The notes under the pieces are model-generated. The model saw only the letters and a program-made list of their open reading frames with translations, made no database searches and was not told the DNA's origin. Shown here one piece after another: positions 18,782-59,081 of a stretch of DNA of 64,000 nt. The stretch's first letter is position 1, and every line of letters starts with the position of its first letter. The DNA comes from a virus (Duplodnaviria; Heunggongvirae; Uroviricota; Caudoviricetes): the IMG/VR virus record IMGVR_UViG_3300028797_000106; one strand, written 5' to 3'. A program made the translations under genes and the position numbers.

Positions 18782-18826
18782 CCTATGAAAAATTTTTTAT
18801 ATTTTATTTATTCAAGGAGTAGACTT

Positions 18827-21587: not shown

Positions 21588-21611
21588 AGAACATTCACGG
21601 AAAATTTTTAG

Positions 21612-21641: not shown

Positions 21642-21689
21642 ATATTTTGAAAGGTTGATAAATATCCAAACATTTCAACAGGAGATAAT

Positions 21690-25495: not shown

Positions 25496-25565
25496 CATAG
25501 GGGTTTACAGGACGGGCAAAAATTGTTATATTTTAACTGTAAACAACAAACAAAAAGGAAACAAC

Positions 25566-28142: not shown

Positions 28143-28265
28143 GTATGCCGCAGAGTAATGAAGCTTTATTGGAATTAATGAACACTATATGGAAAGAACT
28201 TGAAAAACAACAAGACGCAAAGGAAAACCTCTGCGCCACAAAAACAACAGAAGAGGACAACTACG

Positions 28266-30776: not shown

Positions 30777-30872
30777 TACTTCATTTGTTTCCTTTTTATC
30801 CATTGCCAACTACATCAATAATTTTTATATTTTAATTGTTGAAACAATAACGGCAAACAAAAGGAAACAACA

Positions 30873-32650: not shown

Positions 32651-32767
32651 GACCGAAAGCCAGTCGTGGTTCCATCTCGTTCCACGACTTGGGAACCACC
32701 CGTCTCTGACCCGTCGGCTATGGTGTTGAAACAGAACGCCGCACCGATGGTATTCAAATAACTTTAG

Positions 32768-32800
32768 CGGGTGCATCTGCACCCGCTTTTCTTTTTCTCT
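32768..32800 (+). terminator. Rho-independent terminator
   Basis: gcgggtgca-tc-tgcacccgc hairpin followed by ttttctttttctc. Confidence 0.6.
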
Positions 32801-32818
32801 CAACAAGGAAACACAAAA

Positions 32819-33259
32819 ATGAAAAAAGGATTTACACTTGTAGAATTGATGGTCGTGATCACAATCATGGGCATCTTAGCGGCAGTAGCCGTTCCAAAAG
32901 CATTCGGACTTGTATGTCTGAATAACCTTGACCGTTGTGAAGCCGAGATGCCGTCTACTTATAAAGAAATTTGCATCAACGGCGACATTCATTCCAGCGA
33001 CCGTCAAGACAGAATTTGTAGGGAACATCTGGCAAAGAAGGTTAAGAAGAATAAGGCACCTGATGTTATCGCCGCACAGCCAGAACCTACCGGCGCCTCT
33101 TCAGTTAAGACCGATACAGTTGTCGTGATTAAGCATGATACGGTCTTCGTCACTGTAAATGAATTACCACTTGATGTATGCATTGAAAACTGTAAGGCGG
33201 AGAACAAATCGGAAAGCCTTATTAAGTTCTGCATCAAAGAAAAGTGCATGAAGGAGTAA
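32819..33259 (+). CDS. Type IV pilin-like protein (prepilin-type N-terminal methylation/cleavage domain)
   Basis: MKKGFTLVELMVVITIMGILAAVAVP is a textbook class III signal peptide with the G-F-T-L-V-E motif. ATG at 32819. Confidence 0.6.
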   Translation: MKKGFTLVELMVVITIMGILAAVAVPKAFGLVCLNNLDRCEAEMPSTYKEICINGDIHSSDRQDRICREHLAKKVKKNKAPDVIAAQPEPTGASSVKTDTVVVIKHDTVFVTVNELPLDVCIENCKAENKSESLIKFCIKEKCMKE

Positions 33260-36426: not shown

Positions 36427-36732
36427 ATGACTGTAGATACATTTGCTTTATGGAAGTTCAAGACCATTGAAGGAATACTCAAGAATTGTCACCCAGCTGA
36501 CTTTTTGACAACCGTATTCACAAAAGGTTTTGAGACATACACAGTGCACTATGACCTTAAGACAAACACATGTGTTATTGAGGACGCTATTAAATTAGAT
36601 GACCAGCAAACACAGTGTTCATTCAAAGATCTTCCAAAGAAGCTCGCTGAAATGGGACTCTATGAAAGAAAAAATCCTGAGGATTGTCACTCAAATGCTC
36701 TCATACCGTTCATTGGCAATTTGGAGAATTAA
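36427..36732 (+). CDS. hypothetical protein
   Basis: ATG at 36427; the 36361 start in the ORF track lies inside the terminator hairpin. Confidence 0.45.
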   Translation: MTVDTFALWKFKTIEGILKNCHPADFLTTVFTKGFETYTVHYDLKTNTCVIEDAIKLDDQQTQCSFKDLPKKLAEMGLYERKNPEDCHSNALIPFIGNLEN

Positions 36733-37055
36733 TGATTGCTATCATAGCTAATATCTTTGGTTTCTTAGGTGCTATTCTTTTCGCATTAAAGACCGGCCCA
36801 CAAATTTGGGAGTGTTGGAAAAACAAATCTACCAAAGGAATAAGCAAGAAAATGCTCTTGATGGATCTTGGAGGTAATATCTTCAGTTTCATCTATATCT
36901 TTTGGTTAAGCTGGGTAGGCGGCATCTGGGCTATCTCAAATCTTCTGAATTATACGGTAGCAACGATCTTCCTACTTATTTTATTCTGGCTCATGTGGAA
37001 ATTCAAAAAAGACAAAAATACCCAGCAGAACGAATCTACTGGGGAAGAAGGTTAA
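36732..37055 (+). CDS. PQ-loop / SemiSWEET-like 3-TM membrane protein
   Basis: 107 aa, three hydrophobic helices; TGPQIWECWKNKSTKGIS resembles the PQ-loop motif. Confidence 0.45.
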   Translation: MIAIIANIFGFLGAILFALKTGPQIWECWKNKSTKGISKKMLLMDLGGNIFSFIYIFWLSWVGGIWAISNLLNYTVATIFLLILFWLMWKFKKDKNTQQNESTGEEG

Positions 37056-38906: not shown

Positions 38907-39416
38907 TTGACTATGGATAAGAAATATACATTTGTTTTAGATTGTGACGGCGTATTTACCGATGGGACCTTTCATTACAATTCCGAAGGAAAATGTGAGA
39001 AGGTTTTCGGACCTGATGACGCCGATGCTTTAAAGTTGATTAAAGACAAGGTCAACATTGTCATTTGCTCAGCGGATCATAGAGGATTTCCGATTACGAA
39101 AAAGCGCATAAATGACATGGGTTTTGAACTGACACAAGTCAAGTCAAAAGACCGTCTTCAGTGGATAAAAGATAACTGCAAAGACACGACTGTCGCATAC
39201 ATGGGTGACTCATTCCAAGATGCACCGATCTTCAAAGGCGTAGATGTTCCGATCTGCACTTCTGACTCATCTATTGTCGCAAAGGCTTATGCGAAGTATG
39301 TCACACAAAGTAAGGGTGGAAACCGCGCCGTTGCAGAAGCAGTCTTCTATCTAGCTTGGGAATGGTTCAAACAGTCACCAGAAGAATTGATGAAGGAGAA
39401 TGGTTATGACATATAA
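38907..39416 (+). CDS. HAD-superfamily sugar-phosphate phosphatase, KdsC-like
   Basis: VLDCDGVFTDG motif I, GDSFQDAP, C-terminal SKGGNRAVAE, typical of the KdsC subfamily. Confidence 0.65.
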   Translation: MTMDKKYTFVLDCDGVFTDGTFHYNSEGKCEKVFGPDDADALKLIKDKVNIVICSADHRGFPITKKRINDMGFELTQVKSKDRLQWIKDNCKDTTVAYMGDSFQDAPIFKGVDVPICTSDSSIVAKAYAKYVTQSKGGNRAVAEAVFYLAWEWFKQSPEELMKENGYDI

Positions 39417-39984
39417 TGAAATGAAAGATAAGGTGCTTGCTGAATTGAACGAATCATTGAGTTCGTTTGATGAAAGAATGGTTGACCAGTTTGCTGAAGA
39501 ATTGGCCCACAAGCGCTGCGCTAACATTGTCGCATACGGTGCTGGAAGAATGGGTTATGGTATCAGAGCTTTCATTATGAGGCTCATGCATTTGGGTTTC
39601 CATGCTTATTGGTATGGTGACACGACCATCCCACATCTTGGACCGAACGATATGTTCTTGTTCGCATCTGCATCTGGCAAGACACAGTCTATCGTCAAGA
39701 TTGCTGAAATTGCGAAGGAAAAGACAGGTGTTCGCATCGCATCTTTGACAGGTGATGAAGAGTCACCGCTTGCCAAGCTTTCTGACTTGGTGATTAAATT
39801 TAAGGGATGCAACAACGGATTGAACTCCGAAAACTCTCCAGACAAGATTAACTCTATCCAGCCGATGACAACATTGAATGAACAGTCTGCGTTCATTTTC
39901 TTTGATTTGGTCTCTTTGAAGTTGATGGAAAAACTCAATGAAGACAACAAGACAATGAGCTTTAGACATAACCAGATTGAATGA
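39400..39984 (+). CDS. SIS-domain sugar-phosphate isomerase (6-phospho-3-hexuloisomerase / arabinose-5-P isomerase-like)
   Basis: VAYGAGRMGYGIRAFIMRLMHLGF...ASASGKTQSIV SIS signature, close to PHI/HxlB-type sequences. Confidence 0.65.
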   Translation: MVMTYNEMKDKVLAELNESLSSFDERMVDQFAEELAHKRCANIVAYGAGRMGYGIRAFIMRLMHLGFHAYWYGDTTIPHLGPNDMFLFASASGKTQSIVKIAEIAKEKTGVRIASLTGDEESPLAKLSDLVIKFKGCNNGLNSENSPDKINSIQPMTTLNEQSAFIFFDLVSLKLMEKLNEDNKTMSFRHNQIE

Positions 39985-40699
39985 TTTAGAAGGACAAGAA
40001 GATATGAATATAAGCACATCATTGATTTGTATGAACATGTCTCAGGTTGACAGGGACATAGAACGCATATTAAAGGCAGCAAATGGCGACCAAAGATTTA
40101 GCTGGTTTCATGCGGATGCGATGGACGGTCACTTCGTTCCGCGCCTTGGAATTTCACCAGAACTAATTCGTGACATTAAGACAACATTTCCGCAGATTCA
40201 CATTGACTCTCACTTGATGATTGCCGATCCGTTCACTTATGTGGATGTGATTGCTCCTTATTCTGATTGGGTTGTCTTCCATTATGAAGCAGTAACTGAC
40301 CCGATTAGAACATTGCAGAAGATGCGTAAGACATGGCCGAATGTTAAGGTGGGTCTCGCAATAAATTTGGCAACCGTCTTTAATCCTGAAATCATTAAGC
40401 TCTTTGACGGCGTGATGTTCATGGGAATCTCTCCAGGCGTTCTTGGAACGAATTCTTATCCAGAAATTGTGAAAGGCAAAATCGCAATGACGCCGAACCA
40501 TAAACATTACTTTGTAGATGGTTCTGTGAATTTCAACACAATTAAGGATTACCGTTTGATTAACCCGAACGGAACACTTGTTTGCGGTTCATCAACAATG
40601 TTTAAGAAAGATGAATTTACAGAAAATCTAAATCGTGAAGATTTGGTTGCTTACAACATCAACAGAATAAAGGACGCTATCGGATGCGAAAGACAGTAG
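39977..40699 (+). CDS. Ribulose-phosphate 3-epimerase family protein (Rpe/AlsE-like)
   Basis: FHADAMDGHFVPRLG, DSHLMI, HYEA, GLAINLATV, MGISPGVLGT align with Rpe catalytic motifs. Alternative ATG at 40004. Confidence 0.6.
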   Translation: MNDLEGQEDMNISTSLICMNMSQVDRDIERILKAANGDQRFSWFHADAMDGHFVPRLGISPELIRDIKTTFPQIHIDSHLMIADPFTYVDVIAPYSDWVVFHYEAVTDPIRTLQKMRKTWPNVKVGLAINLATVFNPEIIKLFDGVMFMGISPGVLGTNSYPEIVKGKIAMTPNHKHYFVDGSVNFNTIKDYRLINPNGTLVCGSSTMFKKDEFTENLNREDLVAYNINRIKDAIGCERQ

Positions 40700-42336
40700 T
40701 TATTCCCGCTGCGGGTCTTGGCTCACGCCTTGATGAATTCACAAAGAATTACAACAAAGCGATGTGCACACTTGGCCCTAAGCCAGTAATTTCTTACATC
40801 ATTGAAAAATTTACGAAGGACGATGAAATCATCATCTTGTTGGGATACAAAGGTGACTTGCTGAAACAGGTCGTGAAAGCGTGTTATCCTGACTGGAATA
40901 TCACATTTGTGAATGTTGATGTATTCCAGGGTCCGGGTTCGGGATTGGGATATTCATTGTCTTGTGCTAAGGAACTTTTGCAGAAGCCTTTCATGTTCTG
41001 GTCTAATGACTCACTGATTGATGAAAACATTGATGAATTTGATTATGACCATAACTTTATGGTTTTGTCAACATTCAGACCGACAAAGGCAGATTCTTAT
41101 CGTCATGCTCGCATCGGTAAGTATCAGGTTCAGAGCATTTTACCGAAGGGAGAATATGATCCTGAAGGTAAGACAACATTGCCTTACATCGGTATCTCTT
41201 ATGTCAAGGACTATAAACAGTTCTGGCAAGTTCAAGAAGACATGTATGAATTGTTCGTCAATGCCGGTGAAAGTGCTGGCTTGAATAACTTGAAGGACAT
41301 GAGATATGTTGTCACCAAAACTTGGACAGATACAGGCAACAAGGAAGAACTGATTGCTGCGAAGGAACGCTTCTCGAAGAACATGGAAGCAACAATTTTG
41401 GAAAAGCCTGAAGAAGCAATTTGGTTCATTGACAATAAAGTTGTGAAATTCCACATTGACCCGAAGTTCATTGAAGGTCGTGTGAAACGCTTCCATACAT
41501 TCATCAATGATGAGATGAAGAACCGCAACATCTTGATGCCGAAGCTTTTGAGCAATTCAGCGAATGTGTATGTGTATGAAAAGGCAGAAGGTAAGGTTAT
41601 GTCAACTGATGTAACTCCGTCTTCATTTGGCCTATTCATTCAGTTGTTCTTTGACAGCGTTAAAGAAAGAAGCGTCTCTGACGAATACAAGTTGAACATC
41701 TATAACGACTTCTATAAAGACAAGACTCTCAAAAGAATTCAGAAGTATTGTGAAGGATGGGAAGAACTTGATGGCGACTGTATTATTAACGGTTGTGTAT
41801 GTAATTCAGCCAGAAAGGTGATTGAAAACATTGACTGGGAAATGATCTCAAGAAGAGCCGTTATCACCGACAACTATCATGGAGACTTCCACTTGGAAAA
41901 CATTTTGGTTGACCGTCGTGAAAAGGGCAACACAAAGTGGATCATGCTTGACTGGAGACAAAACTTCGGAAAGACATACGATGGCGACATTTATTATGAC
42001 TTCGCTAAAATGTGGCATTCGTTGATTGTTAACCATCACATGGTGAAGGACAACTTGTTCAGCTTCCGTCAAAAGAATAACGGTGAATATGAAATTGACA
42101 TTCATCGCTCATTCATTGACACTGAATGTGAAGAAAAATTCAAGGATTTCTTGGTTCACTCTAAGTATGACGCCGACTTGGCAGAATTCTTGACAGCAGT
42201 CATCTTCTTGAACATCGCTGCTTGTCATGTGGGCGTTTATTCAACTTTCTTGTTCTATTTAGGTAAGTACCTGATAAACAAGTTTATTAAGAAACATCCT
42301 GATTACTTGAAACCTGATAGCGGTTTAATCTACTAA
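40684..42336 (+). CDS. Bifunctional sugar-1-phosphate nucleotidyltransferase / APH-fold sugar kinase
   Basis: N-terminal VVIPAAGLGSRL NTP-sugar pyrophosphorylase motif. C-terminal HGDFHLENILV...MLDWRQ Brenner-type kinase motif as in choline/aminoglycoside/N-acetylhexosamine kinases. Confidence 0.6.
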   Translation: MRKTVVIPAAGLGSRLDEFTKNYNKAMCTLGPKPVISYIIEKFTKDDEIIILLGYKGDLLKQVVKACYPDWNITFVNVDVFQGPGSGLGYSLSCAKELLQKPFMFWSNDSLIDENIDEFDYDHNFMVLSTFRPTKADSYRHARIGKYQVQSILPKGEYDPEGKTTLPYIGISYVKDYKQFWQVQEDMYELFVNAGESAGLNNLKDMRYVVTKTWTDTGNKEELIAAKERFSKNMEATILEKPEEAIWFIDNKVVKFHIDPKFIEGRVKRFHTFINDEMKNRNILMPKLLSNSANVYVYEKAEGKVMSTDVTPSSFGLFIQLFFDSVKERSVSDEYKLNIYNDFYKDKTLKRIQKYCEGWEELDGDCIINGCVCNSARKVIENIDWEMISRRAVITDNYHGDFHLENILVDRREKGNTKWIMLDWRQNFGKTYDGDIYYDFAKMWHSLIVNHHMVKDNLFSFRQKNNGEYEIDIHRSFIDTECEEKFKDFLVHSKYDADLAEFLTAVIFLNIAACHVGVYSTFLFYLGKYLINKFIKKHPDYLKPDSGLIY

Positions 42337-42349
42337 TCAGAAAATTTTT

Positions 42350-42380
42350 GGGCGGCTCTTCGGGGCGCCCATTTCTTTTA
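42350..42380 (+). terminator. Intrinsic terminator (imperfect hairpin) followed by TAAATTTG box
   Basis: gggcggctcttcggggcgccc hairpin then atttctttta; preceded by gaaaattttt. Confidence 0.5.
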
Positions 42381-42430
42381 TAAATTTGTATTAAGGTTCA
42401 TAACATAAATGTTGAAAAGGAGGAACCTAA

Positions 42431-45115
42431 ATGGATGATAAGATCCAGCGTGCTTATAAGCACATCTTTTATGATAATTGGTCAAAGCAAATTTGTGTCC
42501 GATATGTTGGTGATACCGAGTTCACTAAAATTCCGTATAAGAAAGATTATTGGGTAAAAGATCCGACTGGTAAGTCTGAATGGAAGGACTTACACGGAAC
42601 ACCAATGATTAAGAAGCCTCTTACTGATAAAGAAATTGTTAAGACTTTGAAACAGTCAGGCGTTACTGTCGCCGAATCCGATTTGAAGGAAGAAGTTAAG
42701 TGGGCGCATGATGTATATGACAATGTTGAACTGACTGCGAACGTCAATGACTTCAACATTGGCTTTTATGATATTGAAGTTGCGGTACCGGAAGATGGTG
42801 GTTTTCCAAAGCCTGAAGAAGCTCGTTTTCCGATTAACTTGATTACATTTTATTCTACAAAGACCAAGACAACATATACTTGGGCTCTCAATCTAAACCT
42901 GCAAGAAGATGACATTGTTAAGAATGTAAGGAACTTCACAAATGAAGTTGATATGTTGAAGGACTGGCTGACTTGGTTCGCAAATGAGCACTTTGACATT
43001 ATCACAGGTTGGAACTCCGTTCTGTTTGACTTGCCTTACATCATTAACCGAATTAAGAACTTACGCATTCAACATGGCATCAAAAAGGAATTGGAAAGAG
43101 CATTGTCACCGTTAGGCAAGATGCCTGAAGCAAAGGATATCTCTGATAAAAAGCAGGGAAATGCCTTGGGTTCATCGTATGAAATACCAGCCTTGCTGCA
43201 TATTGACTACATGGACTTGTATAAGACATTTGCCAAACATGACCCGTTGCCATCATACTCACTGAACTATGTTTCAAAGTTGGTGACTGGCAAAGGTAAG
43301 TTGGAATATGAAGGAACCATCAATACGATTTGGCAGACTGACGGTCAGAAGTTCGGTCAGTATAACGTCGTTGACGTTCTTGACTTTGTTGAGATAGAAG
43401 AAGTTTGCCAGCTGTTCCCACTTATCATTGAATATGCGTATGATTGCTTGGTGACATTGGACAAGATTTACAACAAGGTGCCGACTACTGAAGGTTATAT
43501 CTTGAGATACATTCATGGCCGTCACATTGTTATGAATGACCGACCTGACCATCACGAAGACTGGTGGCGAGCCGAAGAATGTTTCAAAATCAGAAAACCT
43601 GATGGTTCAGATTACTTCCAGAACTGTGAATGGGAAAACGGTAAATATGAATTTGAAGAGTTCCATGTTAAAGCGGGTTACTGTTATGACTTCCCTGGCC
43701 GTTATGATGACTGTATGTCTTTTGACATTACTTCGTCATACCCTCACCATATCATGCAGTTCAACATCTCGCCAGAAGTTAAAATCAGACACCCGAAGAA
43801 AGAAGATATTCTGAGCGGAAAGGTCATAGCATCTGATGTGAACGAAGTCGGGTTCTTGAGAACCGATGATGCAATTCTTCCAAGTATCGTTAAGAAGGTA
43901 TTTGATGAAAGAAAGCATTATAAAGATCTGATGAAGGAAGCCAAGAAGAAGGGTGATAAACACATGGCGGCTATTTATGATAACCGTCAGGGCATCAAGA
44001 AGATCATTATTAACTCGATGTATGGTGTCTGCTTGGCACCGGGCTTCCACATGTATGACATTGACTGTGCAAGATCCATCACTCGCTGTGCCCGTGTCAC
44101 TTTGAGAGACTGGCTGAAGAAATCACTTGACGCATACTATGTGTCAACTGCATTGTTGTCAGATGTTCAGAAGTACTTTAACATCAAGTTGAAGAACACA
44201 AAGCCGCTTGAAATCAAGAACCGTGAATGCGTCTGCGTTCATGCTGATACTGACTCACTGTATTTCTGCATTAATGAATTGAAGATCAGACTTCGTCAAG
44301 AAGGAATGCATATCCAGACTGAAGAAGAACATCGTCAGTTCTATGCTACTGCTGAACAAATGTTCCAAGACTTCTTCGTGAAGGTTCTTGAAATCAGAGC
44401 AAAGAAGAGCCAGACGACAAACAAGATCAAGTATAACAGAGAAAACATTTTCTCTAACATGTTCTGCTTCGCAAAGAAACTTTATATCGGAAACGTCATT
44501 GACGCTGAAGGAACGCCGTATCCGTTTGACGCTGCAAAGCACAAGATAATGGGTGTTGGTATTAAGCGTTCTGATATGCCGGAATTCTGTAAGCAGGCTG
44601 CTGAAAAACTCGCATTTGATATCTGTGCTGGACAGGATTACGAAAAGTCACTTGAATTCATTCATAACACTTACGATGAATTCTGTGCTGCTGGACCTGA
44701 TGCAGTGTCAGCGAAGAAATCGGTTTCGGAATACACGAAGTATGTCACTGAACCAATTGACTCGTATGTCAAGAATGGTCTGCACTTTGATAAAGGACAA
44801 CCGTTCAATGCGAAGTGTGCACTGGCATATAACTATGTGATTACCAAACATAAGTTGCCGCTCATGCCGATTATGAACGGAAACAAATTTAACTATGTGT
44901 ATGTCAAGCCGACTAACCGATATAGAATTGAAGCGACTGCGTTCGTCGGAGCATGGCCGAAAGAATTCTATAAGATCTTTGAGGTTGACTATGAAACAAT
45001 GTTCTCGAAAACATTCTTGCCGTTGTTTGAGTCAATGTTCAAGGTAAAGAAATGGATAGGAGAAAAGGAAAGCATCTCACTGGAAAGAGGCGGTCTCGCA
45101 GCTTTCTTTGGATAG
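42431..45115 (+). CDS. DNA polymerase, family B (T4 gp43-like)
   Basis: Exo I FYDIEV; motif A DITSSYPHHIM; motif B KKIIINSMYGV; motif C VHADTDSLY; 894 aa. Confidence 0.9.
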   Translation: MDDKIQRAYKHIFYDNWSKQICVRYVGDTEFTKIPYKKDYWVKDPTGKSEWKDLHGTPMIKKPLTDKEIVKTLKQSGVTVAESDLKEEVKWAHDVYDNVELTANVNDFNIGFYDIEVAVPEDGGFPKPEEARFPINLITFYSTKTKTTYTWALNLNLQEDDIVKNVRNFTNEVDMLKDWLTWFANEHFDIITGWNSVLFDLPYIINRIKNLRIQHGIKKELERALSPLGKMPEAKDISDKKQGNALGSSYEIPALLHIDYMDLYKTFAKHDPLPSYSLNYVSKLVTGKGKLEYEGTINTIWQTDGQKFGQYNVVDVLDFVEIEEVCQLFPLIIEYAYDCLVTLDKIYNKVPTTEGYILRYIHGRHIVMNDRPDHHEDWWRAEECFKIRKPDGSDYFQNCEWENGKYEFEEFHVKAGYCYDFPGRYDDCMSFDITSSYPHHIMQFNISPEVKIRHPKKEDILSGKVIASDVNEVGFLRTDDAILPSIVKKVFDERKHYKDLMKEAKKKGDKHMAAIYDNRQGIKKIIINSMYGVCLAPGFHMYDIDCARSITRCARVTLRDWLKKSLDAYYVSTALLSDVQKYFNIKLKNTKPLEIKNRECVCVHADTDSLYFCINELKIRLRQEGMHIQTEEEHRQFYATAEQMFQDFFVKVLEIRAKKSQTTNKIKYNRENIFSNMFCFAKKLYIGNVIDAEGTPYPFDAAKHKIMGVGIKRSDMPEFCKQAAEKLAFDICAGQDYEKSLEFIHNTYDEFCAAGPDAVSAKKSVSEYTKYVTEPIDSYVKNGLHFDKGQPFNAKCALAYNYVITKHKLPLMPIMNGNKFNYVYVKPTNRYRIEATAFVGAWPKEFYKIFEVDYETMFSKTFLPLFESMFKVKKWIGEKESISLERGGLAAFFG

Positions 45116-46548: not shown

Positions 46549-46585
46549 TGACGCTTCGCTGCTTGCGAGGCGTTTTTCTTATCTT
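46549..46585 (+). terminator. Rho-independent terminator
   Basis: acgcttcg-ctgcttg-cgaggcgt hairpin (one G-U pair) then ttttt. Confidence 0.55.
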
Positions 46586-46802
46586 AAATTTACGAAATTT
46601 GGGCTGTTTTATTACAGTTTTGAGCAGAAATCGTCAAATTTTATGATAAATTCGGTAAATACGGATAATTGCCAACAAAATCTTAAAAACATGCTTTTTG
46701 CGGATTTTACCCGCTTACATCTTTAGATTTTATTTACCTTCAAATTGTGCACGGTCGCCCAAAATTTAATTATATTTTTATTGAATAGTGGAGGTAAAAC
46801 TT

Positions 46803-47330
46803 ATGTATGAAGCACTGTTTCAAAGGATTAAATCAACCGACTTCCCTCTGGCCTGCCGCGGAATGTATTACTTCTCGAAAGGCAGACACGCACATCAAGA
46901 AAGGAAAGGATCTGGCATGCCTTACTTTGTTCACCCTCGCGGCGTTGCATACATCGTGATGGAACATGGCGGCACAGTTGACCAGATAAATGCAGCGCTT
47001 GCACATGACCTGCTTGAAGATACGGAAACATCCTATCTTGAAATCAAGGCAGTTGCCAATTCAAATCATTGTGCGGAACTCTGCGCTGAATTAAGAAACA
47101 ATGAATTTAAGAAAGAAGAACTCGGCAAGGAAAAATACATCACGGAAAAATTGCTCGGCATGAGCAATGACGCCCTTTTGATTAAACTTGCGGATATGGT
47201 TTACAATTCTTATGACATGCCTGGTGAAAAAGCATTGAACCGTATGTATAAGAATGTTTGTGAACTGCTTCTTAAGAGAGAATTATCGCCAATCTGCAAA
47301 GAACTTGCGGATTTGGTAATTTTGGCTTAA
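46803..47330 (+). CDS. Small (p)ppGpp hydrolase, HD-domain (SpoT/Mesh1-like)
   Basis: HAHQERKGSGMPYFVHPRGVAYIV...INAALAHDLLEDTETS matches the RelA/SpoT hydrolase-domain consensus. gtggaggtaaaac RBS. Confidence 0.6.
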   Translation: MYEALFQRIKSTDFPLACRGMYYFSKGRHAHQERKGSGMPYFVHPRGVAYIVMEHGGTVDQINAALAHDLLEDTETSYLEIKAVANSNHCAELCAELRNNEFKKEELGKEKYITEKLLGMSNDALLIKLADMVYNSYDMPGEKALNRMYKNVCELLLKRELSPICKELADLVILA

Positions 47331-47331: not shown

Positions 47332-47541
47332 ATGACACAACCATTAAACATTAACGATTTTGCTGAACTCGGTCGTATGCTTAAGTATATTGACAGACAC
47401 GATGAAGAAGAAATTCGTGCGACCATCAAATATGAAGGCGAACGAGAAATGGCAAATGCAGAAAAGAACCTTGAACTGGCTGATGAAATCATCGCCGACA
47501 CAACTGGAGAAACCAATGAAAACTTACAAAGCAACAATTAA
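47332..47541 (+). CDS. hypothetical protein
   Basis: 69 aa. Confidence 0.4.
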   Translation: MTQPLNINDFAELGRMLKYIDRHDEEEIRATIKYEGEREMANAEKNLELADEIIADTTGETNENLQSNN

Positions 47542-48408: not shown

Positions 48409-48564
48409 ATGAAAAAGAAATACATCAAACCCGAAATGGAAATCCTTGATACAGGCGTTCAGTCACAGTTGCTGGCAGGCTCCAGCGACCCTTGGTGGAA
48501 AGAACCTGACCCTCCTGAAGAAGGCTGCGAAAGCTCATGGCATTGCGGCGGTTGGGGGAACTAA
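48409..48564 (+). CDS. hypothetical small Cys/Trp-rich peptide (51 aa)
   Basis: MKKKYIKPEMEILDTGVQSQLLAGSSDPWWKEPDPPEEGCESSWHCGGWGN; starts right after the upstream stop and ends at the GIY-YIG start. Confidence 0.25.
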   Translation: MKKKYIKPEMEILDTGVQSQLLAGSSDPWWKEPDPPEEGCESSWHCGGWGN

Positions 48565-49208
48565 TGACTAACATTAAGAACTGTGTTTACTTGGTTCGCT
48601 GTGACGGACATGATAGAGGCGTGTATAAGATTGGTTTGACAACTGACCTTGATACACGCATCAAGTCTTTAAGTTCAGCAACAGAAGCGCCCGGCCCATT
48701 TTATCCGTTGGCTGTTATTGAAACTGATAAGTATCGCTTATTGGAATCATACATGCATAGCAGATATACGGACGAACGCATGTTTCCTAATAAAGAATTT
48801 TTCAAATTCATTGATGAAGAAGGAAACGAATATGTTGATGATGTCATTGATGAAATGCAACGCCTTGCAGAATTAATGAATGCAAAGATTACTGTTTTTG
48901 ATGACAACATTGAAAAGGATGAAAAGAAAGGTCGAGCAAAGCGTTTCTATTTCAAGAACATTGGATTGAAAGGCGGAGACGAAGTTATCCTTGACATTCC
49001 TAAAAATGAAAACACGCCGCATACTTATTATGTTGCAGCTGACGGCAGACATATTGTTGAAGACGCGGCTGACATAAACAATAAAGAAGTTTGGTTGTCG
49101 GTTTCTAAACTGATGCAAGAATACACTGATACCCGTCAGTGGTCAGTTCATCCTGAATGGTGGTATCACGACGGAGTAAGTTGTGCGTCAAAAATCCAAA
49201 ATAACTAA
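48564..49208 (+). CDS. GIY-YIG homing endonuclease-like protein
   Basis: VYLVRCDGHDRGVYKIGLTTDLDTRIKSL is a GIY-YIG motif; C-terminal basic region. Confidence 0.55.
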   Translation: MTNIKNCVYLVRCDGHDRGVYKIGLTTDLDTRIKSLSSATEAPGPFYPLAVIETDKYRLLESYMHSRYTDERMFPNKEFFKFIDEEGNEYVDDVIDEMQRLAELMNAKITVFDDNIEKDEKKGRAKRFYFKNIGLKGGDEVILDIPKNENTPHTYYVAADGRHIVEDAADINNKEVWLSVSKLMQEYTDTRQWSVHPEWWYHDGVSCASKIQNN

Positions 49209-51106: not shown

Positions 51107-52246
51107 ATGGCAAATAAATTAGTCGCTAAATTTAAGAGAGAAAAAGTATTCGCCGATATCTTGGCAGCAGACAATGTAGAAGATGAATATCTGTCTACCA
51201 ACTGTGCGCCTGTTAACTTGTTATTTAGTGGAAAACTTCTTGGTGGAATTAAAAAGGGTAAGATGAGCACCATCTGTGCTGACTCCGGTTGGGGTAAGTC
51301 ATTGATTGGCTTGAACTGTCTGGCTGCTGCATATAAGTCGGGCATGACATGCGTTGTCATTGACACAGAAAACGCTTTCAATGTTGAACTTGCTGCATCG
51401 CTTGGCATTGACGTTGACGATATCTTGATTTTCAAGACTTCGCGCATTCCTGAAATCAAACAGATTTACGGTCGCATTAACCACGGCCTAACACGAGCCG
51501 AATCTCGTGAGATTTTCGTGCTTCTTGACTCTTGGGGTCCGATTGTTGAAGCACAGGTTATGGAAAAGGCAGAAGAAGCATCATCTGCTGTGAACATGTC
51601 AGCAGCTAAGTTCAAGAACGAACTTGCTAACATCATCAACGCTTGCGGAAACACATCGCTGATTGTCAACCATGTGTATGAATCGTTGCAGATGTATGGT
51701 GAAAAGTTCGCTGTCCCAGGTGGTAAGAGATTGTTCTTCAACTCTGACGCTATCGTTCTTGCTTCGTCAGCAGCTAAGGCTAAGGACAAGGAAGGAAACA
51801 TCTACGGTAAGGTCATTACAGCAGGTGTTAAGAAAGGTCGTGCTGCTAAGGAATTCTCTAAGACCAAGTTCTTGATTGAACATTCTGGTGGTATCAACCC
51901 TTACTTCGGTTTGTTGGAAGATGCTATTGACTCCGGTGCGGTTATCAAGGTAAAGCAGGGCGTCTCTGTTGTTTACCAGCGTGTTGGAATTGACGAAGAC
52001 GGAAAAACATGGAAGGAAGCAGACCTTTACTGCGCTGCATTCTGGATTCCTCTTTACAAGAGCGAAGTATTCAACCACTATGTGGAAAAGAAATACGCTT
52101 TTGAAGATGCAACTCTTGTTGCTTCCGTTGAAAACATTATGGACCTTTTGAATGCTGACCCGTCAACTTTGTCTACTCAGTCTATCGGCGCTAAACGCAA
52201 TGAAGACGATGACGATGACGAAGACTACGATGTGGACGCTGAATAA
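51107..52246 (+). CDS. uvsX: UvsX/RecA-like recombinase
   Basis: RecA-fold Walker A ADSGWGKS; overall layout like T4 UvsX; acidic C-terminal tail. Confidence 0.8.
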   Translation: MANKLVAKFKREKVFADILAADNVEDEYLSTNCAPVNLLFSGKLLGGIKKGKMSTICADSGWGKSLIGLNCLAAAYKSGMTCVVIDTENAFNVELAASLGIDVDDILIFKTSRIPEIKQIYGRINHGLTRAESREIFVLLDSWGPIVEAQVMEKAEEASSAVNMSAAKFKNELANIINACGNTSLIVNHVYESLQMYGEKFAVPGGKRLFFNSDAIVLASSAAKAKDKEGNIYGKVITAGVKKGRAAKEFSKTKFLIEHSGGINPYFGLLEDAIDSGAVIKVKQGVSVVYQRVGIDEDGKTWKEADLYCAAFWIPLYKSEVFNHYVEKKYAFEDATLVASVENIMDLLNADPSTLSTQSIGAKRNEDDDDDEDYDVDAE

Positions 52247-52269
52247 TCGTCAATAATTCTTAAGAGAGT

Positions 52270-52300
52270 GGGCAGAAAATTTTTGCCCATTCTTTTTTTC
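52270..52300 (+). terminator. Weak intrinsic terminator followed by TTTATATTTT box
   Basis: gggca-gaaaattttt-gccc hairpin then ttctttttttc. Confidence 0.4.
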
Positions 52301-52349
52301 TTAAAAAATGTTTTTATATTTTATTCAAACATTTTAGGAGTATCTTTAT

Positions 52350-52913
52350 ATGTCAGTTGTTATCATGTGTGGTTTGGACCGATGCGGGAAATCTACACAA
52401 ATAGAAAAGATCAAGAATTATTTCAAAGAAAAAGGCAGAGACTCGACAGTAATTCACTATTCCGGCATTGATGTTCCAGAAAGTGGACCATTCAAGCAGG
52501 GTGCACAATTCGTTGCATCAAGAGCAAGATATGATGACATGCTTCACCTTGCTGATGAAATGACTGACGCTGAACAAGTTCTGATTTTTGACCGAGCACA
52601 CCTCGGGGAAATGGTTTACTCTCCGCTTTATAGAAAGTATAATGGGGAATATGTTTTTGAACTCGAACAGAAGTATCCGAACTTACTTGAGAAGGCACTT
52701 CTATTTGTTGTCATTGACACTCCAGAGCATCTACTTGCTCGTGAAGACGGTATGAGTTTCTCTAACAAGATTGAAGATAAGCAGAAAGAGATTGAATGTT
52801 TTAAGAAGGCATTCGGTATGAGCAACATCAAGAATAAAGAGCTTATTGACATATCTGACAAGAGCATTGAAGATGTTTGGAATATCATTAAACAAAAATT
52901 GGAGAATGTATGA
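52350..52913 (+). CDS. Deoxynucleoside monophosphate kinase (thymidylate-kinase-like)
   Basis: IMCGLDRCGKSTQ P-loop like Tmk GxDGxGKST; sits directly upstream of the hydroxymethylase. Confidence 0.6.
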   Translation: MSVVIMCGLDRCGKSTQIEKIKNYFKEKGRDSTVIHYSGIDVPESGPFKQGAQFVASRARYDDMLHLADEMTDAEQVLIFDRAHLGEMVYSPLYRKYNGEYVFELEQKYPNLLEKALLFVVIDTPEHLLAREDGMSFSNKIEDKQKEIECFKKAFGMSNIKNKELIDISDKSIEDVWNIIKQKLENV

Positions 52914-53659
52914 TTGAAAATTTTGAAATGAAAGAAGATTTGGAAATGCGTCCTGACATGGCTCGAAATGACGCAGTTCTTAATGAAATTCATCAGATGC
53001 TTGCTTATAAGTATCTGTCCGGCGACAAGGTTGGAAATACATGGGAACTGATTGACCAGCATTTGACTCTCAACCCGCTTCAGCCTTATGTGAATGTTCT
53101 TGGCCGTCCGTTCAAACACGACTACCTTGAAAAAGAACATAAGTGGTATATGTCGCAGGATCTGTCTATTAAGGGATGGATGGACGACATCAAGATTTGG
53201 CAGTGGTGTGCATCTAAGGATGACAAGCAGCTCATCAACTCGAATTATGGTTGGTGCGTGTTCTCTGAAGAAAACGGTTCTCAATATGAAAACTGCATTG
53301 AGAAGATGAAGGCCGATGTGAACACAAGAGAAGCATTGATGATTTACACAAGACCGTCAATGCACAAGGACGCTGTTGAAAATGGTAAGCATGATTTCAT
53401 GTGTACTGTCTCTGCACAGGCGATGATTCGTGACGGCAAGCTTTATTACATTGTGACTCAAAGATCTTGTGACTTGGTGACTGGCTTCTCGTTTGACTTC
53501 CCATGGCACTGCTTCGTTTATCAGATGATGTTCCAAGAATTGAAGAAGACATACCCTGAATTGGAAGTGGGTAGCATCTTCTATAACATCGGGTCTTTGC
53601 ATGTTTATGAAAGACACGAAAATCTCTTGAAGAAATGGGCAGCATATAACGAAGTATAA
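52910..53659 (+). CDS. Deoxycytidylate (pyrimidine) 5-hydroxymethyltransferase, T4 gp42-like
   Basis: KIWQWCASKDDKQLINSNYGWCVF, ALMIYTRPSMHKD, HDFMCTVSAQAMIRDGK and YNIGSLHVYERH closely track T4 gp42 blocks (KIWQQVASSKGEINSNYGWAIW, GIMIYTRPSMQFD, SDFMCTNTVQYLIRDKK, WNVGSLHVYSRH) by recall. ThyA-fold active-site Cys present. Confidence 0.8.
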   Translation: MIENFEMKEDLEMRPDMARNDAVLNEIHQMLAYKYLSGDKVGNTWELIDQHLTLNPLQPYVNVLGRPFKHDYLEKEHKWYMSQDLSIKGWMDDIKIWQWCASKDDKQLINSNYGWCVFSEENGSQYENCIEKMKADVNTREALMIYTRPSMHKDAVENGKHDFMCTVSAQAMIRDGKLYYIVTQRSCDLVTGFSFDFPWHCFVYQMMFQELKKTYPELEVGSIFYNIGSLHVYERHENLLKKWAAYNEV

Positions 53660-55095
53660 TGAAAGCAACGGATTTTGAAAGAATCATCATTAAAGCACTC
53701 TTCGTGAATGAAGGGGTAAGATCTAAAGTCTTACCCATGCTTTCCGTTGATTGGTTCTTTGATGTTGATGACAAGTTTATTGTAGACCGCATTTTGGATT
53801 ACAATACTCGCTTCGGACGATTGCCCAATGTCATTGAAATGAAGCGTCTTATCACTGATGAACAGACGCTGAAAATCTTTGATGAAGTGATGGGTATCGC
53901 TGACGAGGAAGTCAATACAGAATTCATTCTTGAAGAAATTGAAGAATATGTTCGTAAGCGACTTCTGTATAATCAGGCGGTTAAGATTACATCTTATGTG
54001 ACCGGAGGAGATAAGACACAGCCGGGCAGTTCTTCAAGTGAGAGCTTTGCTGATAATGTGTCCGATGCAGAATCGTTCTCCTTTGACACGAACATTGGTT
54101 TTGACTTCTTCAATGATCCTCAGAGATTGTATGAAGATGCCAACATTCATGAGAAGATTTACAACTGTGGCATTGAAACACTCAATGACATGATTGGAGG
54201 TGGGTTCCATGAAAAGTCGCTGACACTTATCATGGCAGGAACGAACGTAGGTAAGACACTTATTATGTGCTCACTTGCGAACAACTTCGTCATGAATGGA
54301 CATAACGTATTGTATGTGACATTTGAAGACCCGGAAAACAAGATTGCATCTCGTGTTGCTCAAAATATGTTTGACATCACGCAGCAGCAATATCGTCAAA
54401 TGTCAAAGGAAGATTTCGGAAAGGCGTTCGCAAAAGCGAAGTCACATCTTCGTGGCAACCGTTTGGTTATTAAGGAATTTCCAGAATACTCGACGAATGC
54501 GATGAAGATCCGTTCACTTATCAAGGAACTTGACGAAAAGCAAGGTTTCAAACCTGATGTCTTGTTCATTGACTATATCGGATGTATGGTTCCGAACGGA
54601 CGCTTCAACCCGAACATGAACTCAAACACACTCTTGCTCACTGTTGCTATGCAGGTAAGAGCATTGGGTATGGAATTGGGTATTCCTGTCATATCTGCTT
54701 CACAGGCAAACCGTGGCGGTAACGGCGTTGCTGAAATCGCATTGACGGACGTAGCCGACTCATTCGGTCAGAACATGAAGGCAGACGCTGTCTTCGGTGT
54801 CACACAACCGGAAGAAATGGCTGAACAGAACCTTTACATTGTGAAGTTGTTGAAGACAAGATACGGTGCACCATTGAATGGAAGGCCGATATTGACCCGT
54901 ATTGGCGTGGATAAGGAAAAGCAGCGCATATTTGATATAGATATTGCAGCAACATCACAAAGCGCCGCAAACATCTTTACGCAGCCTTCACCGACACCGC
55001 GTAAGAAGACATTGAAAAACACAGAGGAAGACGAGCCGTATGAATTTGACGAGGGTTCTTCCGAAACACCGATTGATGAAATAGACTTTGTATAG
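53659..55095 (+). CDS. Replicative DNA helicase, DnaB family (T4 gp41-like)
   Basis: Walker A MAGTNVGKT, Walker B VLFIDYIG, arginine finger region SQANRGG; 478 aa. Confidence 0.85.
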   Translation: MKATDFERIIIKALFVNEGVRSKVLPMLSVDWFFDVDDKFIVDRILDYNTRFGRLPNVIEMKRLITDEQTLKIFDEVMGIADEEVNTEFILEEIEEYVRKRLLYNQAVKITSYVTGGDKTQPGSSSSESFADNVSDAESFSFDTNIGFDFFNDPQRLYEDANIHEKIYNCGIETLNDMIGGGFHEKSLTLIMAGTNVGKTLIMCSLANNFVMNGHNVLYVTFEDPENKIASRVAQNMFDITQQQYRQMSKEDFGKAFAKAKSHLRGNRLVIKEFPEYSTNAMKIRSLIKELDEKQGFKPDVLFIDYIGCMVPNGRFNPNMNSNTLLLTVAMQVRALGMELGIPVISASQANRGGNGVAEIALTDVADSFGQNMKADAVFGVTQPEEMAEQNLYIVKLLKTRYGAPLNGRPILTRIGVDKEKQRIFDIDIAATSQSAANIFTQPSPTPRKKTLKNTEEDEPYEFDEGSSETPIDEIDFV

Positions 55096-56115: not shown

Positions 56116-57102
56116 ATGCCAGTAAAAAGAGACCTAAGTGGTTATTTCGCAGAAATCAAGCAAGCAGCAGAACCGGCTGCTCAGACACGCAAATCTTATA
56201 AGGTTGAGGACGCATTTACGCCGACCTATAAGGACAATAAATTTAGCTGTGTCATTCGTTTCCTCCCATCACATCCTGAAGAATTTAAGCCTTTCATTGA
56301 GAACCGCACCCACATGTTTAAGGTGAACGGTGACCAGTGGTTTGGATGCGACTGTCTTGGCAAGTTCGGCAAGCCTTGTCCGATTTGCGAATACAACAGA
56401 AAGCAGTTCCAGATCTACAAGAACAAGGAAGAAGCTAAGCAGCATTCCTTCGGAAAGGCTCGTTCAAGATATGTATGTAATATCTTGGTGGTTCGTAACC
56501 CGAACAACACTGAACAGGAAGGAAAGGTCTATCGCTTTGAATTTGGTGCTCAGATCATGAAGCTCATCTCTGAAGCCATGACTGACAAGGACGATGGAAT
56601 TGAAGTTAAGAAGGGTATCAACCCGTTTGATTGGTTTGACGGCGCTAACTTCGTTTACGAAGGCGTTAAGACTGCAAACGGACCTAAGCTTGATGCTTCT
56701 CACTTCGGCCCACAACAGCAGATTAACAAGTGGACTGGAAAGAAGTATGAAGACTTGACTGAAAAGGAAATCGACGAAGTTGAAAGCAAGCTTTATCGTC
56801 TCGACGAATGCTACCACAAGGAAGAAGATGTTGCTGATTACAACGGAATTCTTGAACGTTACGAAAAGAAGACCGGTAAGACACTGTTTGACGGTATTCC
56901 TGTCGCAGGAACAGCAGCCGCTTCAAATTCCATCGCATCAACCAATCCGTTCGCTGCACCTGCCGCACCCGCAGCAGCTCCTGCAGTAGAATCATTTGAC
57001 TTTGATGCGCCAGCCGCTGAACCTGTAAAGGCTGCACCGGCTGCTGCTGAAACACTTGACGACGCTGCCTTCTGGGCACAAGTCAATGACCAGCAGGGTT
57101 AA
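56116..57102 (+). CDS. Single-stranded DNA-binding protein, T4 gp32-like
   Basis: CVIRFLPS, zinc ligands C..C...C.C, YVCNILVVRNPNNTEQEGKVYRFEFG and FDGANFV match T4 gp32 blocks; Ala/Pro-rich acidic C-tail. Confidence 0.85.
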   Translation: MPVKRDLSGYFAEIKQAAEPAAQTRKSYKVEDAFTPTYKDNKFSCVIRFLPSHPEEFKPFIENRTHMFKVNGDQWFGCDCLGKFGKPCPICEYNRKQFQIYKNKEEAKQHSFGKARSRYVCNILVVRNPNNTEQEGKVYRFEFGAQIMKLISEAMTDKDDGIEVKKGINPFDWFDGANFVYEGVKTANGPKLDASHFGPQQQINKWTGKKYEDLTEKEIDEVESKLYRLDECYHKEEDVADYNGILERYEKKTGKTLFDGIPVAGTAAASNSIASTNPFAAPAAPAAAPAVESFDFDAPAAEPVKAAPAAAETLDDAAFWAQVNDQQG

Positions 57103-57179: not shown

Positions 57180-58103
57180 ATGATTGATTTTTATAATGAA
57201 AACCTTCGCATTCTGAATTTCACACACATTGACTTTGACGGAGCTGTCTCCGCTGTCGTGATTAAGAATTACTACAAGAATGTGATTACGGAACAAACGA
57301 ATTACGGAAGAGAACAGGAAATCATCACAAAGGTGAACATTCACCACGGTAAGTATGATGCCATCATCTTCACTGACTTTACACCGACCGAAGGCGGCCC
57401 AGGAATGCTGAAGAATGCGATAGAAGAAATCGCATTTGTGGCGGGCGTGCCTGTCATGGTTCTTGACCATCATGAGTCTGCGTTGAAGTATCATGACCCA
57501 CAGAAAAATGTTTTCATCAACATAGGCTACTGCGGGGCAATGCTTGCTTACAAGTTCTTCAGCGTTAAGAAGGATCTCTCACACATCAAGGATCTTGTCG
57601 GACTCGCAAATGATTATGACTTGTTCACACTGAAGGATCCTCGTGCTATGCCTTTCAATGCTCTTTATTGGCAGATGGGCTTTCAGTGGTTCATGACCCG
57701 CTTTGGAAAGGGCAACACAAATCTTTACCCAGAAGAAAAGCAGTACTTGCTAGAATACAAACAGGCAGTCCAGACAACCTATGATAATCTTCCGGTATCT
57801 GACTTGCCGCATAATGGCTGCTTCTATGAATGTGAAAGATACATGGCTGAAATGAGTCACCGTCTTTCTAAGGATGGGTATCAGTATCAGATCATTAAGC
57901 ACGGAAATGCATTGTCTATCCGTTCGGCAACTGATAACATCAACCTTGTTGAAGTGTGCCAATACATGGGCAAGGGAGGCGGACACCGAAAGGCTGCCGG
58001 CATTCCTCTTCGTGTAGAGGACGACATCAAGCAACTCGTTCAGCAGATTTGTTTCGCTGTTGAACATCAACTTAACACACATAAAGATGGACTACCATTC
58101 TAA
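57180..58103 (+). CDS. DHH-family phosphoesterase (RecJ/NrnA-like)
   Basis: HIDFDGAVSA (motif I), LDHHES (DHH), GGGHRKAAG (DHHA1). Confidence 0.7.
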   Translation: MIDFYNENLRILNFTHIDFDGAVSAVVIKNYYKNVITEQTNYGREQEIITKVNIHHGKYDAIIFTDFTPTEGGPGMLKNAIEEIAFVAGVPVMVLDHHESALKYHDPQKNVFINIGYCGAMLAYKFFSVKKDLSHIKDLVGLANDYDLFTLKDPRAMPFNALYWQMGFQWFMTRFGKGNTNLYPEEKQYLLEYKQAVQTTYDNLPVSDLPHNGCFYECERYMAEMSHRLSKDGYQYQIIKHGNALSIRSATDNINLVEVCQYMGKGGGHRKAAGIPLRVEDDIKQLVQQICFAVEHQLNTHKDGLPF

Positions 58104-58788: not shown

Positions 58789-58806
58789 TCTTCGGAAAAT
58801 TTTTAA

Positions 58807-58835
58807 GCCGGTCCGCGAGGGCCGGTTTTCTTTGT
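58807..58835 (+). terminator. Intrinsic terminator followed by TTAAATTTG box
   Basis: gccggtcc-gcga-gggccggt hairpin then tttctttgttaaatttg; preceded by ggaaaattttt. Confidence 0.55.
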
Positions 58836-58847
58836 TAAATTTGTAAT

Positions 58848-59081
58848 ATGACAGACGCAGAAATAAAAATTTACGCCGACCACTTTGCAGCAGGTCCGCA
58901 ATGTATCTTACCGTTCAAAGGAAGTGACCATCTCCCAGGTGAGAAACCTGAGACAGGTGTCATCTTTTGCCCGTATGTAAAGCCATCAAGATGGCGCAGG
59001 ATTTGGAACCGCATAACAGGAATTTTAAGAAAGAAGAGTGAGCCGGTTGAGTTGACTTATGAACCTTGTGACGATAAATAA
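58848..59081 (+). CDS. hypothetical protein
   Basis: 77 aa. Confidence 0.4.
   Translation: MTDAEIKIYADHFAAGPQCILPFKGSDHLPGEKPETGVIFCPYVKPSRWRRIWNRITGILRKKSEPVELTYEPCDDK

Follow-up and report, generated by a model that had tools for sequence, protein, structure and literature searches.

The gene and its predicted product

We analyzed a 64,000-nt stretch of the viral genome IMGVR_UViG_3300028797_000106 (here called the window), which is about a quarter of a roughly 264-kb genome. On its plus strand, the window carries a gene for a 175-aa protein that had been described in an earlier note as a phage-encoded small alarmone hydrolase (SAH). RSH-family (RelA/SpoT homolog) hydrolases remove the 3'-pyrophosphate of (p)ppGpp, and some SAHs degrade (p)ppApp too. 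The open reading frame (ORF) runs from ATG at 46803-46805 to TAA at 47328-47330, in agreement with the note, and is preceded by a Shine-Dalgarno sequence (Table 1). Similar 5-mers precede 32% of the plus-strand ORF starts, versus 6% at random positions. A longer frame starting from GTG at 46788 is improbable, given that the homologs are 175 to 178 aa long and begin with MYE.

The protein matched the Pfam family HD_4 (PF13328, RelA/SpoT hydrolase domain) over residues 26 to 136 with 38.6 bits (gathering cutoff, 27.2; E = 1.1e-9), and a precomputed PF13328 match was present on nearly all of the 120 homologs listed. Furthermore, it matched PHROG 990 ("metal-dependent phosphohydrolase"; E = 8e-18). 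The NCBIfam model TIGR00691 (spoT_relA) was aligned solely at positions 2 to 118 of 687, and therefore the protein corresponds to the hydrolase part only. Indeed, a Pfam scan of the 175 aa detected no further significant domain; with no synthetase, TGS, or ACT domain, the protein has the architecture of the SAH class. Among solved structures, the best match by sequence was human MESH1 (3nr1; E = 1.3e-10), followed by Corynebacterium glutamicum RelH, a Leptospira SAH, and Listeria lmo0812, with the hydrolase halves of long Rel/RelA/SpoT proteins ranking after these.

The active site was analyzed in two alignments. The main one had 117 rows, made up of human MESH1 and 116 family sequences (115 relatives from metagenomes plus the window protein); the second was a 54-sequence subset with 51 to 95% identity. 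Residues 13 to 129 of the MESH1 row agree with the alignment from the solved-structure search. Residues H29, R34, K35, Y41, H44, H68, D69, E72, D73, D131, and N135 of the phage protein correspond to H19, R24, K25, Y32, H35, H61, D62, E65, D66, D122, and N126 of MESH1, respectively. Thus, the metal tetrad His...His-Asp...Asp (H35, H61, D62, and D122 in MESH1) is complete (H44, H68, D69, and D131), and the Glu-Asp catalytic diad (E72, D73), the basic motif R34/K35, and N135 are all present. With the exception of K35, all of these residues were invariant in the 54-sequence alignment. Among the 116 family sequences, H44, H68, D69, E72, D131, and N135 were conserved in 100%, H29, R34, and D73 in 98 to 99%, and K35 in 91%.

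An AlphaFold2 model built with the family alignment was all-helical, with a predicted local distance difference test score of 94.8 and a predicted template-modeling score of 0.91. In a Foldseek search against the PDB, the top match was MESH1 (template-modeling [TM] score, 0.76; full length, 175 to 177 columns), followed by C. glutamicum RelH and the SAHs of Leptospira and Pseudomonas aeruginosa. Rel/SpoT hydrolase domains ranked below the SAHs, and the first 50 PDB matches listed were RSH hydrolases, Aph1, or lmo0812.

The HD_4 score, the full complement of catalytic residues, and the fold of the model bear out the SpoT/RelA hydrolase identity that the earlier note had proposed. The note had also suggested an alignment to MESH1 and SAHs as a check, and this alignment retained every metal-binding His and Asp. 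Its metal site, given as "HD...HDxxED," was correct in the residues but not in the wording: the protein has a single HD dipeptide (H68-D69 in HDLLED), and the first metal-binding histidine is H44 in the sequence VHP. We conclude that sequence and structure prediction support an intact, stand-alone RSH-family hydrolase, an SAH of the SpoT/Mesh1 type.

The note's further claim, that no synthetase domain is present, proved true of the protein and of its surroundings. Every window ORF of at least 90 aa was scanned against Pfam (as concatenated chunks), and none contained a RelA_SpoT synthetase domain; nor did the called genes beside the SAH in eight related loci. This bears on the idea that the phage itself encodes a toxic alarmone synthetase against which the SAH acts as type IV antitoxin or immunity protein, in the manner of a FaRel-ATfaRel module or of immunity to a MuF-linked toxic small alarmone synthetase (toxSAS). 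SAH antitoxins of such a type exist, ATfaRel being an example (PMC7229694). The partners of a toxin-antitoxin module adjoin each other, however, and the genes flanking the SAH are devoid of the RelA_SpoT domain that ATfaRel-type adjacency would imply. For the roughly one quarter of the genome covered, this makes an antitoxin function very improbable.

Table 1. Features of the SAH gene, its upstream gap, and its surroundings (positions in the window)
Feature	Position	Strand	Remarks
Family-B DNA polymerase (PolB)	42431-45115		T4-like replication block
Intrinsic-terminator-like hairpin with T-run	46550-46574	+	10-bp stem, 6 G-C pairs, loop 5, tail TTTCTTATCT
Sigma-70-like site TTGAGC-16-TATGAT	46620-46647	+	Weak (9/12); candidate promoter only, within the 277-nt gap
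ATTGCCA box	46668-46674		Upstream of the SAH gene
Degenerate motif copy AAAATTTAATTATATTTTTA	46761-46780	+	2-nt insertion; recurrent intergenic motif, candidate phage promoter element, read directly
Shine-Dalgarno sequence GGAGG	46790-46794	+	8 nt 5' of ATG
SAH coding sequence	46803-47330	+	175-aa predicted SAH, RSH-family HD_4 domain only; end includes TAA
Codons H29, R34, K35, Y41, H44	46887-46934	+	Basic phosphate-binding motif and first metal histidine
Codons H68-D69-L-L-E72-D73	47004-47021	+	HDxxED metal-binding/catalytic motif
Codons D131 to N135 (KLADMVYN)	47193-47207	+	Last metal ligand and conserved Asn; invariant
Acidic 69-aa ORF	47332-47541	+	Starts 1 nt past the SAH stop (TAAtATG); no family match
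UvsX	51107-52246		T4-like replication block
DnaB-like helicase	53659-55095		T4-like replication block
gp32	56116-57102		T4-like replication block

Comparison with known alarmone hydrolases

With MESH1 (HDDC3; PDB 3nr1, 5vxa, and 9chy), the phage protein shares the single RSH hydrolase domain of about 175 to 180 aa, the all-alpha fold, and identical metal and catalytic residues (MESH1 R24, H35, H61, D62, E65, D66, D122, and N126). However, identity in the structural alignment is about 23%, and a conserved N-terminal stretch of the phage clade (K10, F14-P15, C18-R19, Y22) has no counterpart in MESH1 in the 117-row alignment. Furthermore, MESH1 is a eukaryotic housekeeping enzyme (human, Drosophila) with reported NADPH phosphatase activity, whereas the SAH analyzed here is a phage gene product.

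The closest functional precedents are PaSpo of Salmonella phage SSU5 and PbcSpo of Salmonella phage PVP-SE1, which are also stand-alone phage SAHs with no adjacent synthetase. PaSpo, the one of the two that was compared by sequence, differs in length (213 aa) and is 34% identical to the window SAH over 115 aa (residues 22 to 136 only). In addition, both phages have enterobacterial hosts and are not jumbo rumen phages. The SAHs of Burkholderia phage BcepSaruman (gp436) and Vibrio phages Va1, pv27, and phiKT1024 are likewise single-domain proteins encoded amid small hypothetical genes, but they show low identity, are uncharacterized, and come from other hosts and environments.

Fold and motifs are also shared with C. 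glutamicum RelH (7qoc/7qod), the Leptospira SAH (7qoe), and the P. aeruginosa SAH (6yvc, 6z3n), which are encoded by chromosomal bacterial genes and are 19 to 24% identical in structural alignment. The P. aeruginosa enzyme, named SAH in the PDB titles, degrades (p)ppGpp and (p)ppApp according to literature cited in PMC12846349. The (p)ppApp hydrolase Aph1 of Bacteroides caccae (7smg) is an alarmone hydrolase of the HD superfamily too, but it is a weaker structural match (TMq, 0.61), is shorter (about 142 aa), and belongs to a separate family (PMC10083569). Membership in the Aph1 family was rejected: Foldseek placed Aph1 at rank 30 and lower (E = 3e-3), after MESH1 and the SAHs, and Aph1 was absent from the sequence matches to solved structures.

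The phage clade possibly represents a new SAH subfamily. Named subfamilies include PaSpo, PbcSpo, Mesh1, and Mesh1-L (Atkinson 2011, Jimmy 2020). The window SAH has the HD1-type R-K motif, which Ruwe et al. did not find in their representatives of pbcSpo, pbcSpo2, and divSpo (PMC5954133). Charge was considered as a pointer to tRNA binding and proved uninformative, the isoelectric point of 6.1 being similar to those of PaSpo and MESH1.

Relatives and phage origin

An identical SAH protein is encoded on eight contigs, the longest of 264 kb, and the closest contigs have the gene order PolB-246-65-152-gap-SAH-69-148-148-T5orf172 in common (numbers are protein lengths in aa). More than 135 metagenomic clusters are 50 to 95% identical to the window SAH, and a profile search of 1.84 billion representatives yielded 94 clusters at E ≤ 1e-30. 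In IMG/VR, relatives of 49 to 89% identity are located on viral contigs of 210 to 424 kb. Sheep, yak, buffalo, and cattle gut are named as sources in the records of relatives.

Among 185,579 prokaryotic species (one genome each), more than 60% identity was detected in three contigs of ruminant metagenome-assembled genomes (MAGs) only, all other matches reaching at most 41%. One of these three contigs has a flanking gene in common with the IMG/VR jumbo-phage contigs. The best matches among 50,697 phage records, which represent cultured phages, were the BcepSaruman and Vibrio phage SAHs, 34 to 35% identical over 83 to 86% of the length. At the DNA level, the 42.4- to 50-kb region had no close cultured-phage relative; only a 70-nt PolB stretch matched T4-like cyanophages.

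The phage origin claimed in the earlier note was corroborated by the T4-like PolB, UvsX, gp32, and DnaB-like helicase, the Rnl1-type RNA ligase of the window, the IMG/VR relatives, and the 264-kb contig. Since no virion gene was recognized within the window, this assignment is supported by replication genes and relatives. Judged by sequence comparison, the SAH is part of a clade confined to phages, namely, jumbo phages of the ruminant gut. One related contig was binned in a sheep "Bacteroidaceae" MAG; the frequent use of Shine-Dalgarno sequences fits a Bacteroidaceae host poorly.

In many of the next-closest relatives, the SAH domain forms the C terminus of proteins of 275 to 945 aa (P0143-P0158, P0183, P0195, P0210). 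Toward the N terminus, these proteins consist of short modules in repeated arrays, with no Pfam match except in one protein, which has BspA-type leucine-rich repeats. One such fused gene lies on a phage-like contig (locus L130, 1041-2909). Such fusions may point to delivery or targeting functions.

Selection and exchange among phages

The DNA similarity of related SAH genes was 66 to 76% and was bounded exactly by the ORF borders. The proportion of synonymous differences was 0.72 to 0.89 and thus saturated, versus 0.11 to 0.25 for nonsynonymous differences; the two computable ratios of nonsynonymous to synonymous rates (dN/dS) were about 0.06. By these measures, the SAH is under strong purifying selection. 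Nothing was found in favor of decay to an inactive relic or a noncatalytic scaffold protein, which is hardly conceivable with such a dN/dS, with all metal and catalytic residues kept, and with a complete fold predicted at high confidence.

The conservation of flanking genes was compared in views covering 12 to 20 kb of each related locus. In 40 related loci, no counterpart of any of the 12 proteins that flank the SAH in the window was detected within ±6 to 10 kb of the homolog. When 22 loci were compared with all window proteins, the SAH was the sole strong match; otherwise, there were matches of 31 to 34% to two unrelated window genes. The small ORFs downstream of the SAH in distant loci (55, 73, 122, 52, and 99 aa) showed no similarity when judged by eye. 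A conserved partner gene was therefore rejected.

A recent transfer of a gene cassette was rejected as well, because DNA identity was only 66 to 76% and synonymous sites were saturated. Two loci are informative about older events. The SAH of locus L015 is 54% identical to that of the window, and this locus has DnaB_C and TROVE genes of its own; locus L014 encodes a 61% identical SAH and its own RNA ligase. The window DnaB and TROVE-like proteins found no match in L015, and the window Rnl1 protein found none in L014, even at E ≤ 1. Because these proteins are unmatched though the SAHs are 54 to 61% identical, the comparison suggests old horizontal exchange of the SAH among otherwise unrelated large phages.

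On other jumbo-phage contigs, the SAH gene is located amid many small unassigned genes and known or suspected counterdefense or repair genes. Near it we noted NADAR and an intein-containing RtcB in L009, S-AdoMet lyase with PDDEXK_5 in L011/L012, endonuclease V with DUF1848 in L013, and, in L014, ClpP, a Dam-type methylase, and a metallophosphatase. RNA-related genes within 10 kb of an SAH were RtcB (L009), TROVE (L015), and RNA ligase (L014).

Upstream signals and expression

The noncoding gap ahead of the SAH gene comprises 277 nt. The terminator-like hairpin (Table 1) is located 25 nt past the stop of the 152-aa upstream gene and separates this gene from the SAH unit. Other gaps with the combination of GAAAATTTTT, a G+C-rich hairpin, and a T-run are located at 42337-42430, 21588-21689, 52247-52349, and 58789-58850. 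An Rfam scan for structured RNA in the 277-nt gap gave chance-level scores only (10 to 16 bits versus gathering scores of 47 to 50).

Sigma-70-like sites stronger than that of the window are present directly 5' of the SAH in several related loci. At a threshold of at least 10/12, they were detected in 9 of 25 distinct upstream regions (36%), versus 14% of random 300-nt windows. With the window's own site below this threshold, a promoter of its own as a universal SAH feature was only partly supported.

The motif AAAAATTGTTATATTTTAA had five matches with up to 3 mismatches in the window (1275-1293, 4933-4951, 18789-18807, 25518-25536, and 30817-30835), versus 0.03 expected. It is located just ahead of plus-strand genes and probably represents a phage promoter class. 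ATTGCCA boxes at 4918, 30802, 31255, and 46668 often lie approximately 10 nt 5' of this motif, and the combined pattern ATTGCCA-N8-20-AAWWTTTWW had 3 matches in the window, versus 0.04 expected. The SAH gene's own motif copy was picked up by neither of the two motif scans. Overall, the expression signals near the gene are only suggestive.

Because its start lies 1 nt after the SAH stop, the 69-aa ORF is probably cotranscribed with the SAH gene. It is not kept beside the SAH in distant relatives.

Genomic neighborhood

The immediate neighbors of the SAH gene (246, 65, and 152 aa upstream; 69, 148, and 148 aa downstream) had no Pfam, PHROG, or PADLOC assignment. The only flanking gene matching a candidate defense system is a T5orf172/MUG113 gene (GIY-YIG related; 48537-49208), 1.2 kb downstream, which matched the PADLOC candidate model PDC-S57 (E = 1e-18) and also the C-terminal regions of PD-Lambda-1. 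It may encode a homing-type nuclease or a phage-borne exclusion protein.

The T4-like replication block (Table 1) also holds dTMP-kinase-like and thymidylate-synthase-like genes. The region 52350-53659 comprises a thymidylate-kinase-like gene and, after it, a divergent gene of the thymidylate synthase family (PF00303, partial; E = 7e-14), which could encode a deoxynucleoside monophosphate hydroxymethylase or another base-modifying enzyme instead of ThyA. The ORF at 23736-24278 had a weak ThyX-like (Thy1) match under the Pfam cutoff. Adjoining gp32, a DHH/DHHA1 phosphoesterase gene (57180-58103) encodes either a RecJ/NrnA-like protein or a second enzyme degrading nucleotide signals, as proposed for jumbo phages (PMC7824862).

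Directly 5' of PolB, the region 38907-42336 contains genes related to sugar phosphates: a DCDGV-motif protein (HAD-like, by eye), a SIS-domain protein (39400-39984), a ribulose-phosphate-3-epimerase-like protein (39977-40699), and a protein of 550 aa that weakly matched nucleotidyltransferases and APH kinases (40684-42336). These genes are candidates for a nucleotide-sugar pathway, e.g., for DNA or surface modification. An island of low G+C content at approximately 13200-18000 (0.30 to 0.36 versus about 0.42 elsewhere) carries a Stealth-family (capsule phosphotransferase-like) gene (13876-14814) with glycosyltransferase-like ORFs on its flanks, as well as several minus-strand genes, and may be an acquired module for polysaccharide modification. 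Membrane-related genes, unusual in a phage, are located at 19411-20541, 31385-33259, and 36684-37055 and comprise a major facilitator superfamily transporter (376 aa), an SPFH/band-7 protein, a type IV pilin N-methylation motif protein, and a PQ-loop protein.

Three further genes or gene pairs are related to RNA: a T4 Rnl1-type RNA ligase gene at 28200-29408; a gene at 61724-63178, in which the head domain of a CCA-adding enzyme or poly(A) polymerase is fused to a cytidylyltransferase-like domain; and, at 4999-8019, an AAA ATPase gene followed by one for a DUF2828/DUF7788 protein (PHROG 850, "RNA-binding protein"; Ro/TROVE-like).

A cluster for NAD+ salvage or biosynthesis at 152-4566 agrees with the description of "NAD-jumbo phages" in animal guts (PMC11662467). 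It consists of an NMNAT (cytidylyltransferase-like)-Nudix fusion (152-1234), an isochorismatase/nicotinamidase-like gene (1318-1908), four small unassigned ORFs (1908-3775), and NadE (3790-4566). Together with the presence of a MESH1-NADPH complex (5vxa) among the closest solved structures, this cluster would suit an NADP(H) phosphatase of the kind reported for metazoan MESH1. Such an enzyme would supply the phage NAD+ economy by turning NADPH/NADP+ into NADH/NAD+. However, the NAD genes are located 42 to 46 kb away and do not form one unit with the SAH gene, identity to MESH1 in structural alignment is only about 23%, and the same residues serve alarmone hydrolysis. Furthermore, we know of no phage SAH shown to act on NADPH. 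We regard this function as improbable.

Proposed role

We favor, at roughly 60% probability, the view that the phage SAH erases the 3'-pyrophosphate of alarmones and tRNA and thereby counters host defense. According to this proposal, the enzyme would be a catalytically competent, single-domain, metal-dependent 3'-pyrophosphohydrolase (with Mn2+, by analogy) of an uncultured ruminant-gut jumbo phage. During infection, it would strip the 3'-pyrophosphate put on nucleotides [(p)ppGpp and (p)ppApp] by RelA/SpoT-type synthetases of the host. It would also strip the 3'-pyrophosphate put on the CCA end of tRNA by toxSAS such as CapRel, FaRel2, and PhRel. As a result, host translation and nucleotide synthesis would be kept going, and abortive infection based on the stringent response or on toxSAS would be blunted.

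For substrates, expression timing, and the antidefense role, the proposal draws on homologs studied by others, which make a counterdefense function plausible. PaSpo of SSU5 and PbcSpo of PVP-SE1 neutralize all five toxSAS tested (PMC7229694), and PaSpo is stated to remove the toxSAS modification from tRNA (PMC11559606). MESH1 and ATfaRel restore tRNA with a CCA end pyrophosphorylated by toxSAS (bioRxiv 10.1101/2021.04.30.441581). In heterologous assays, toxSAS neutralization is documented only for these four proteins (PMC7229694; bioRxiv 10.1101/2021.04.30.441581). toxSAS such as CapRel are antiphage systems (PMC9712102), and Iyer et al. (2021) catalogued "HD-alarmone PDEases" of jumbo phages and proposed that they counter nucleotide-based defense (PMC7824862). 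The counterdefense interpretation is thus already published and not new.

The SAH could also serve a general metabolic reprogramming, in which it would only lower the housekeeping (p)ppGpp that the host's Rel/RelA produces in rumen cells short of nutrients and sustain rRNA, ribosome, and DNA synthesis for a very large genome. The SAH has its chemistry and residues in common with (p)ppGpp hydrolases, the gene is located inside a block for replication and nucleotide metabolism (PolB, UvsX, dTMP kinase, thymidylate-synthase-like protein, helicase, and gp32), and such a view was proposed for Pseudomonas phage Adele (PMC12846349). Sequence cannot separate this account from counterdefense, and the authors of the Adele study likewise stated that the relevant substrate of the Adele SAH cannot be told from sequence (PMC12846349). 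The phage SAHs tested so far, however, neutralize toxSAS whose product is not ppGpp (PMC7229694). Moreover, a clade common to phages with unrelated neighbors resembles an exchangeable accessory or counterdefense gene more than a core metabolic one. Metabolic reprogramming is therefore unlikely, with an appreciable chance nonetheless of being correct.

Several points weigh against the proposed defense-countering eraser. The clade is known from sequence and predicted structure. Substrate preference is not transferable, because identity is 34 to 35% to the SAHs of cultured phages and about 23% to MESH1. The SAH family is promiscuous: MESH1 acts on NADPH and was crystallized with 3'-phosphoadenosine 5'-phosphosulfate (PDB entries). 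The case for early or independent transcription of the SAH in the window is weak, its sigma-70-like site reaching only 9/12. PADLOC gave no match for the SAH, a result that is uninformative since its library contains defense rather than antidefense proteins.

More speculatively, the clade might consist of specialized tRNA 3'-end depyrophosphorylases. Together with the phage Rnl1-type RNA ligase and the CCA-adding enzyme, they would form a tRNA-repair toolkit against tRNA-targeting abortive infection, and the SAH would be swapped horizontally between unrelated phages as a portable counterdefense gene. This idea is based on the restriction of the clade to phages, the saturation of synonymous sites at 65 to 89% protein identity, and the occurrence of the clade in phages whose helicase, Ro-like, and RNA ligase genes show no detectable relatedness to one another from phage to phage. 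We consider it doubtful.

Significance

The eraser proposal introduces no new concept, since the idea and two experimental precedents have been published and phage SAHs have already been described. The protein is a compact candidate, well folded in the prediction, for testing the substrate range with (p)ppGpp, (p)ppApp, tRNA 3'-pyrophosphate, and NADPH. It could also serve as a toxSAS-detoxifying tool in expression hosts, as SSU5 PaSpo does now. For the ruminant gut, no link has so far been made between phage biology and either the hosts or their toxSAS or stringent-response defenses. Should the proposed role prove correct, a large, previously uncharacterized, phage-restricted branch would be added to the small alarmone hydrolases, and giant phages of this gut ecosystem would be under strong selection for the erasure of alarmone or tRNA pyrophosphates.

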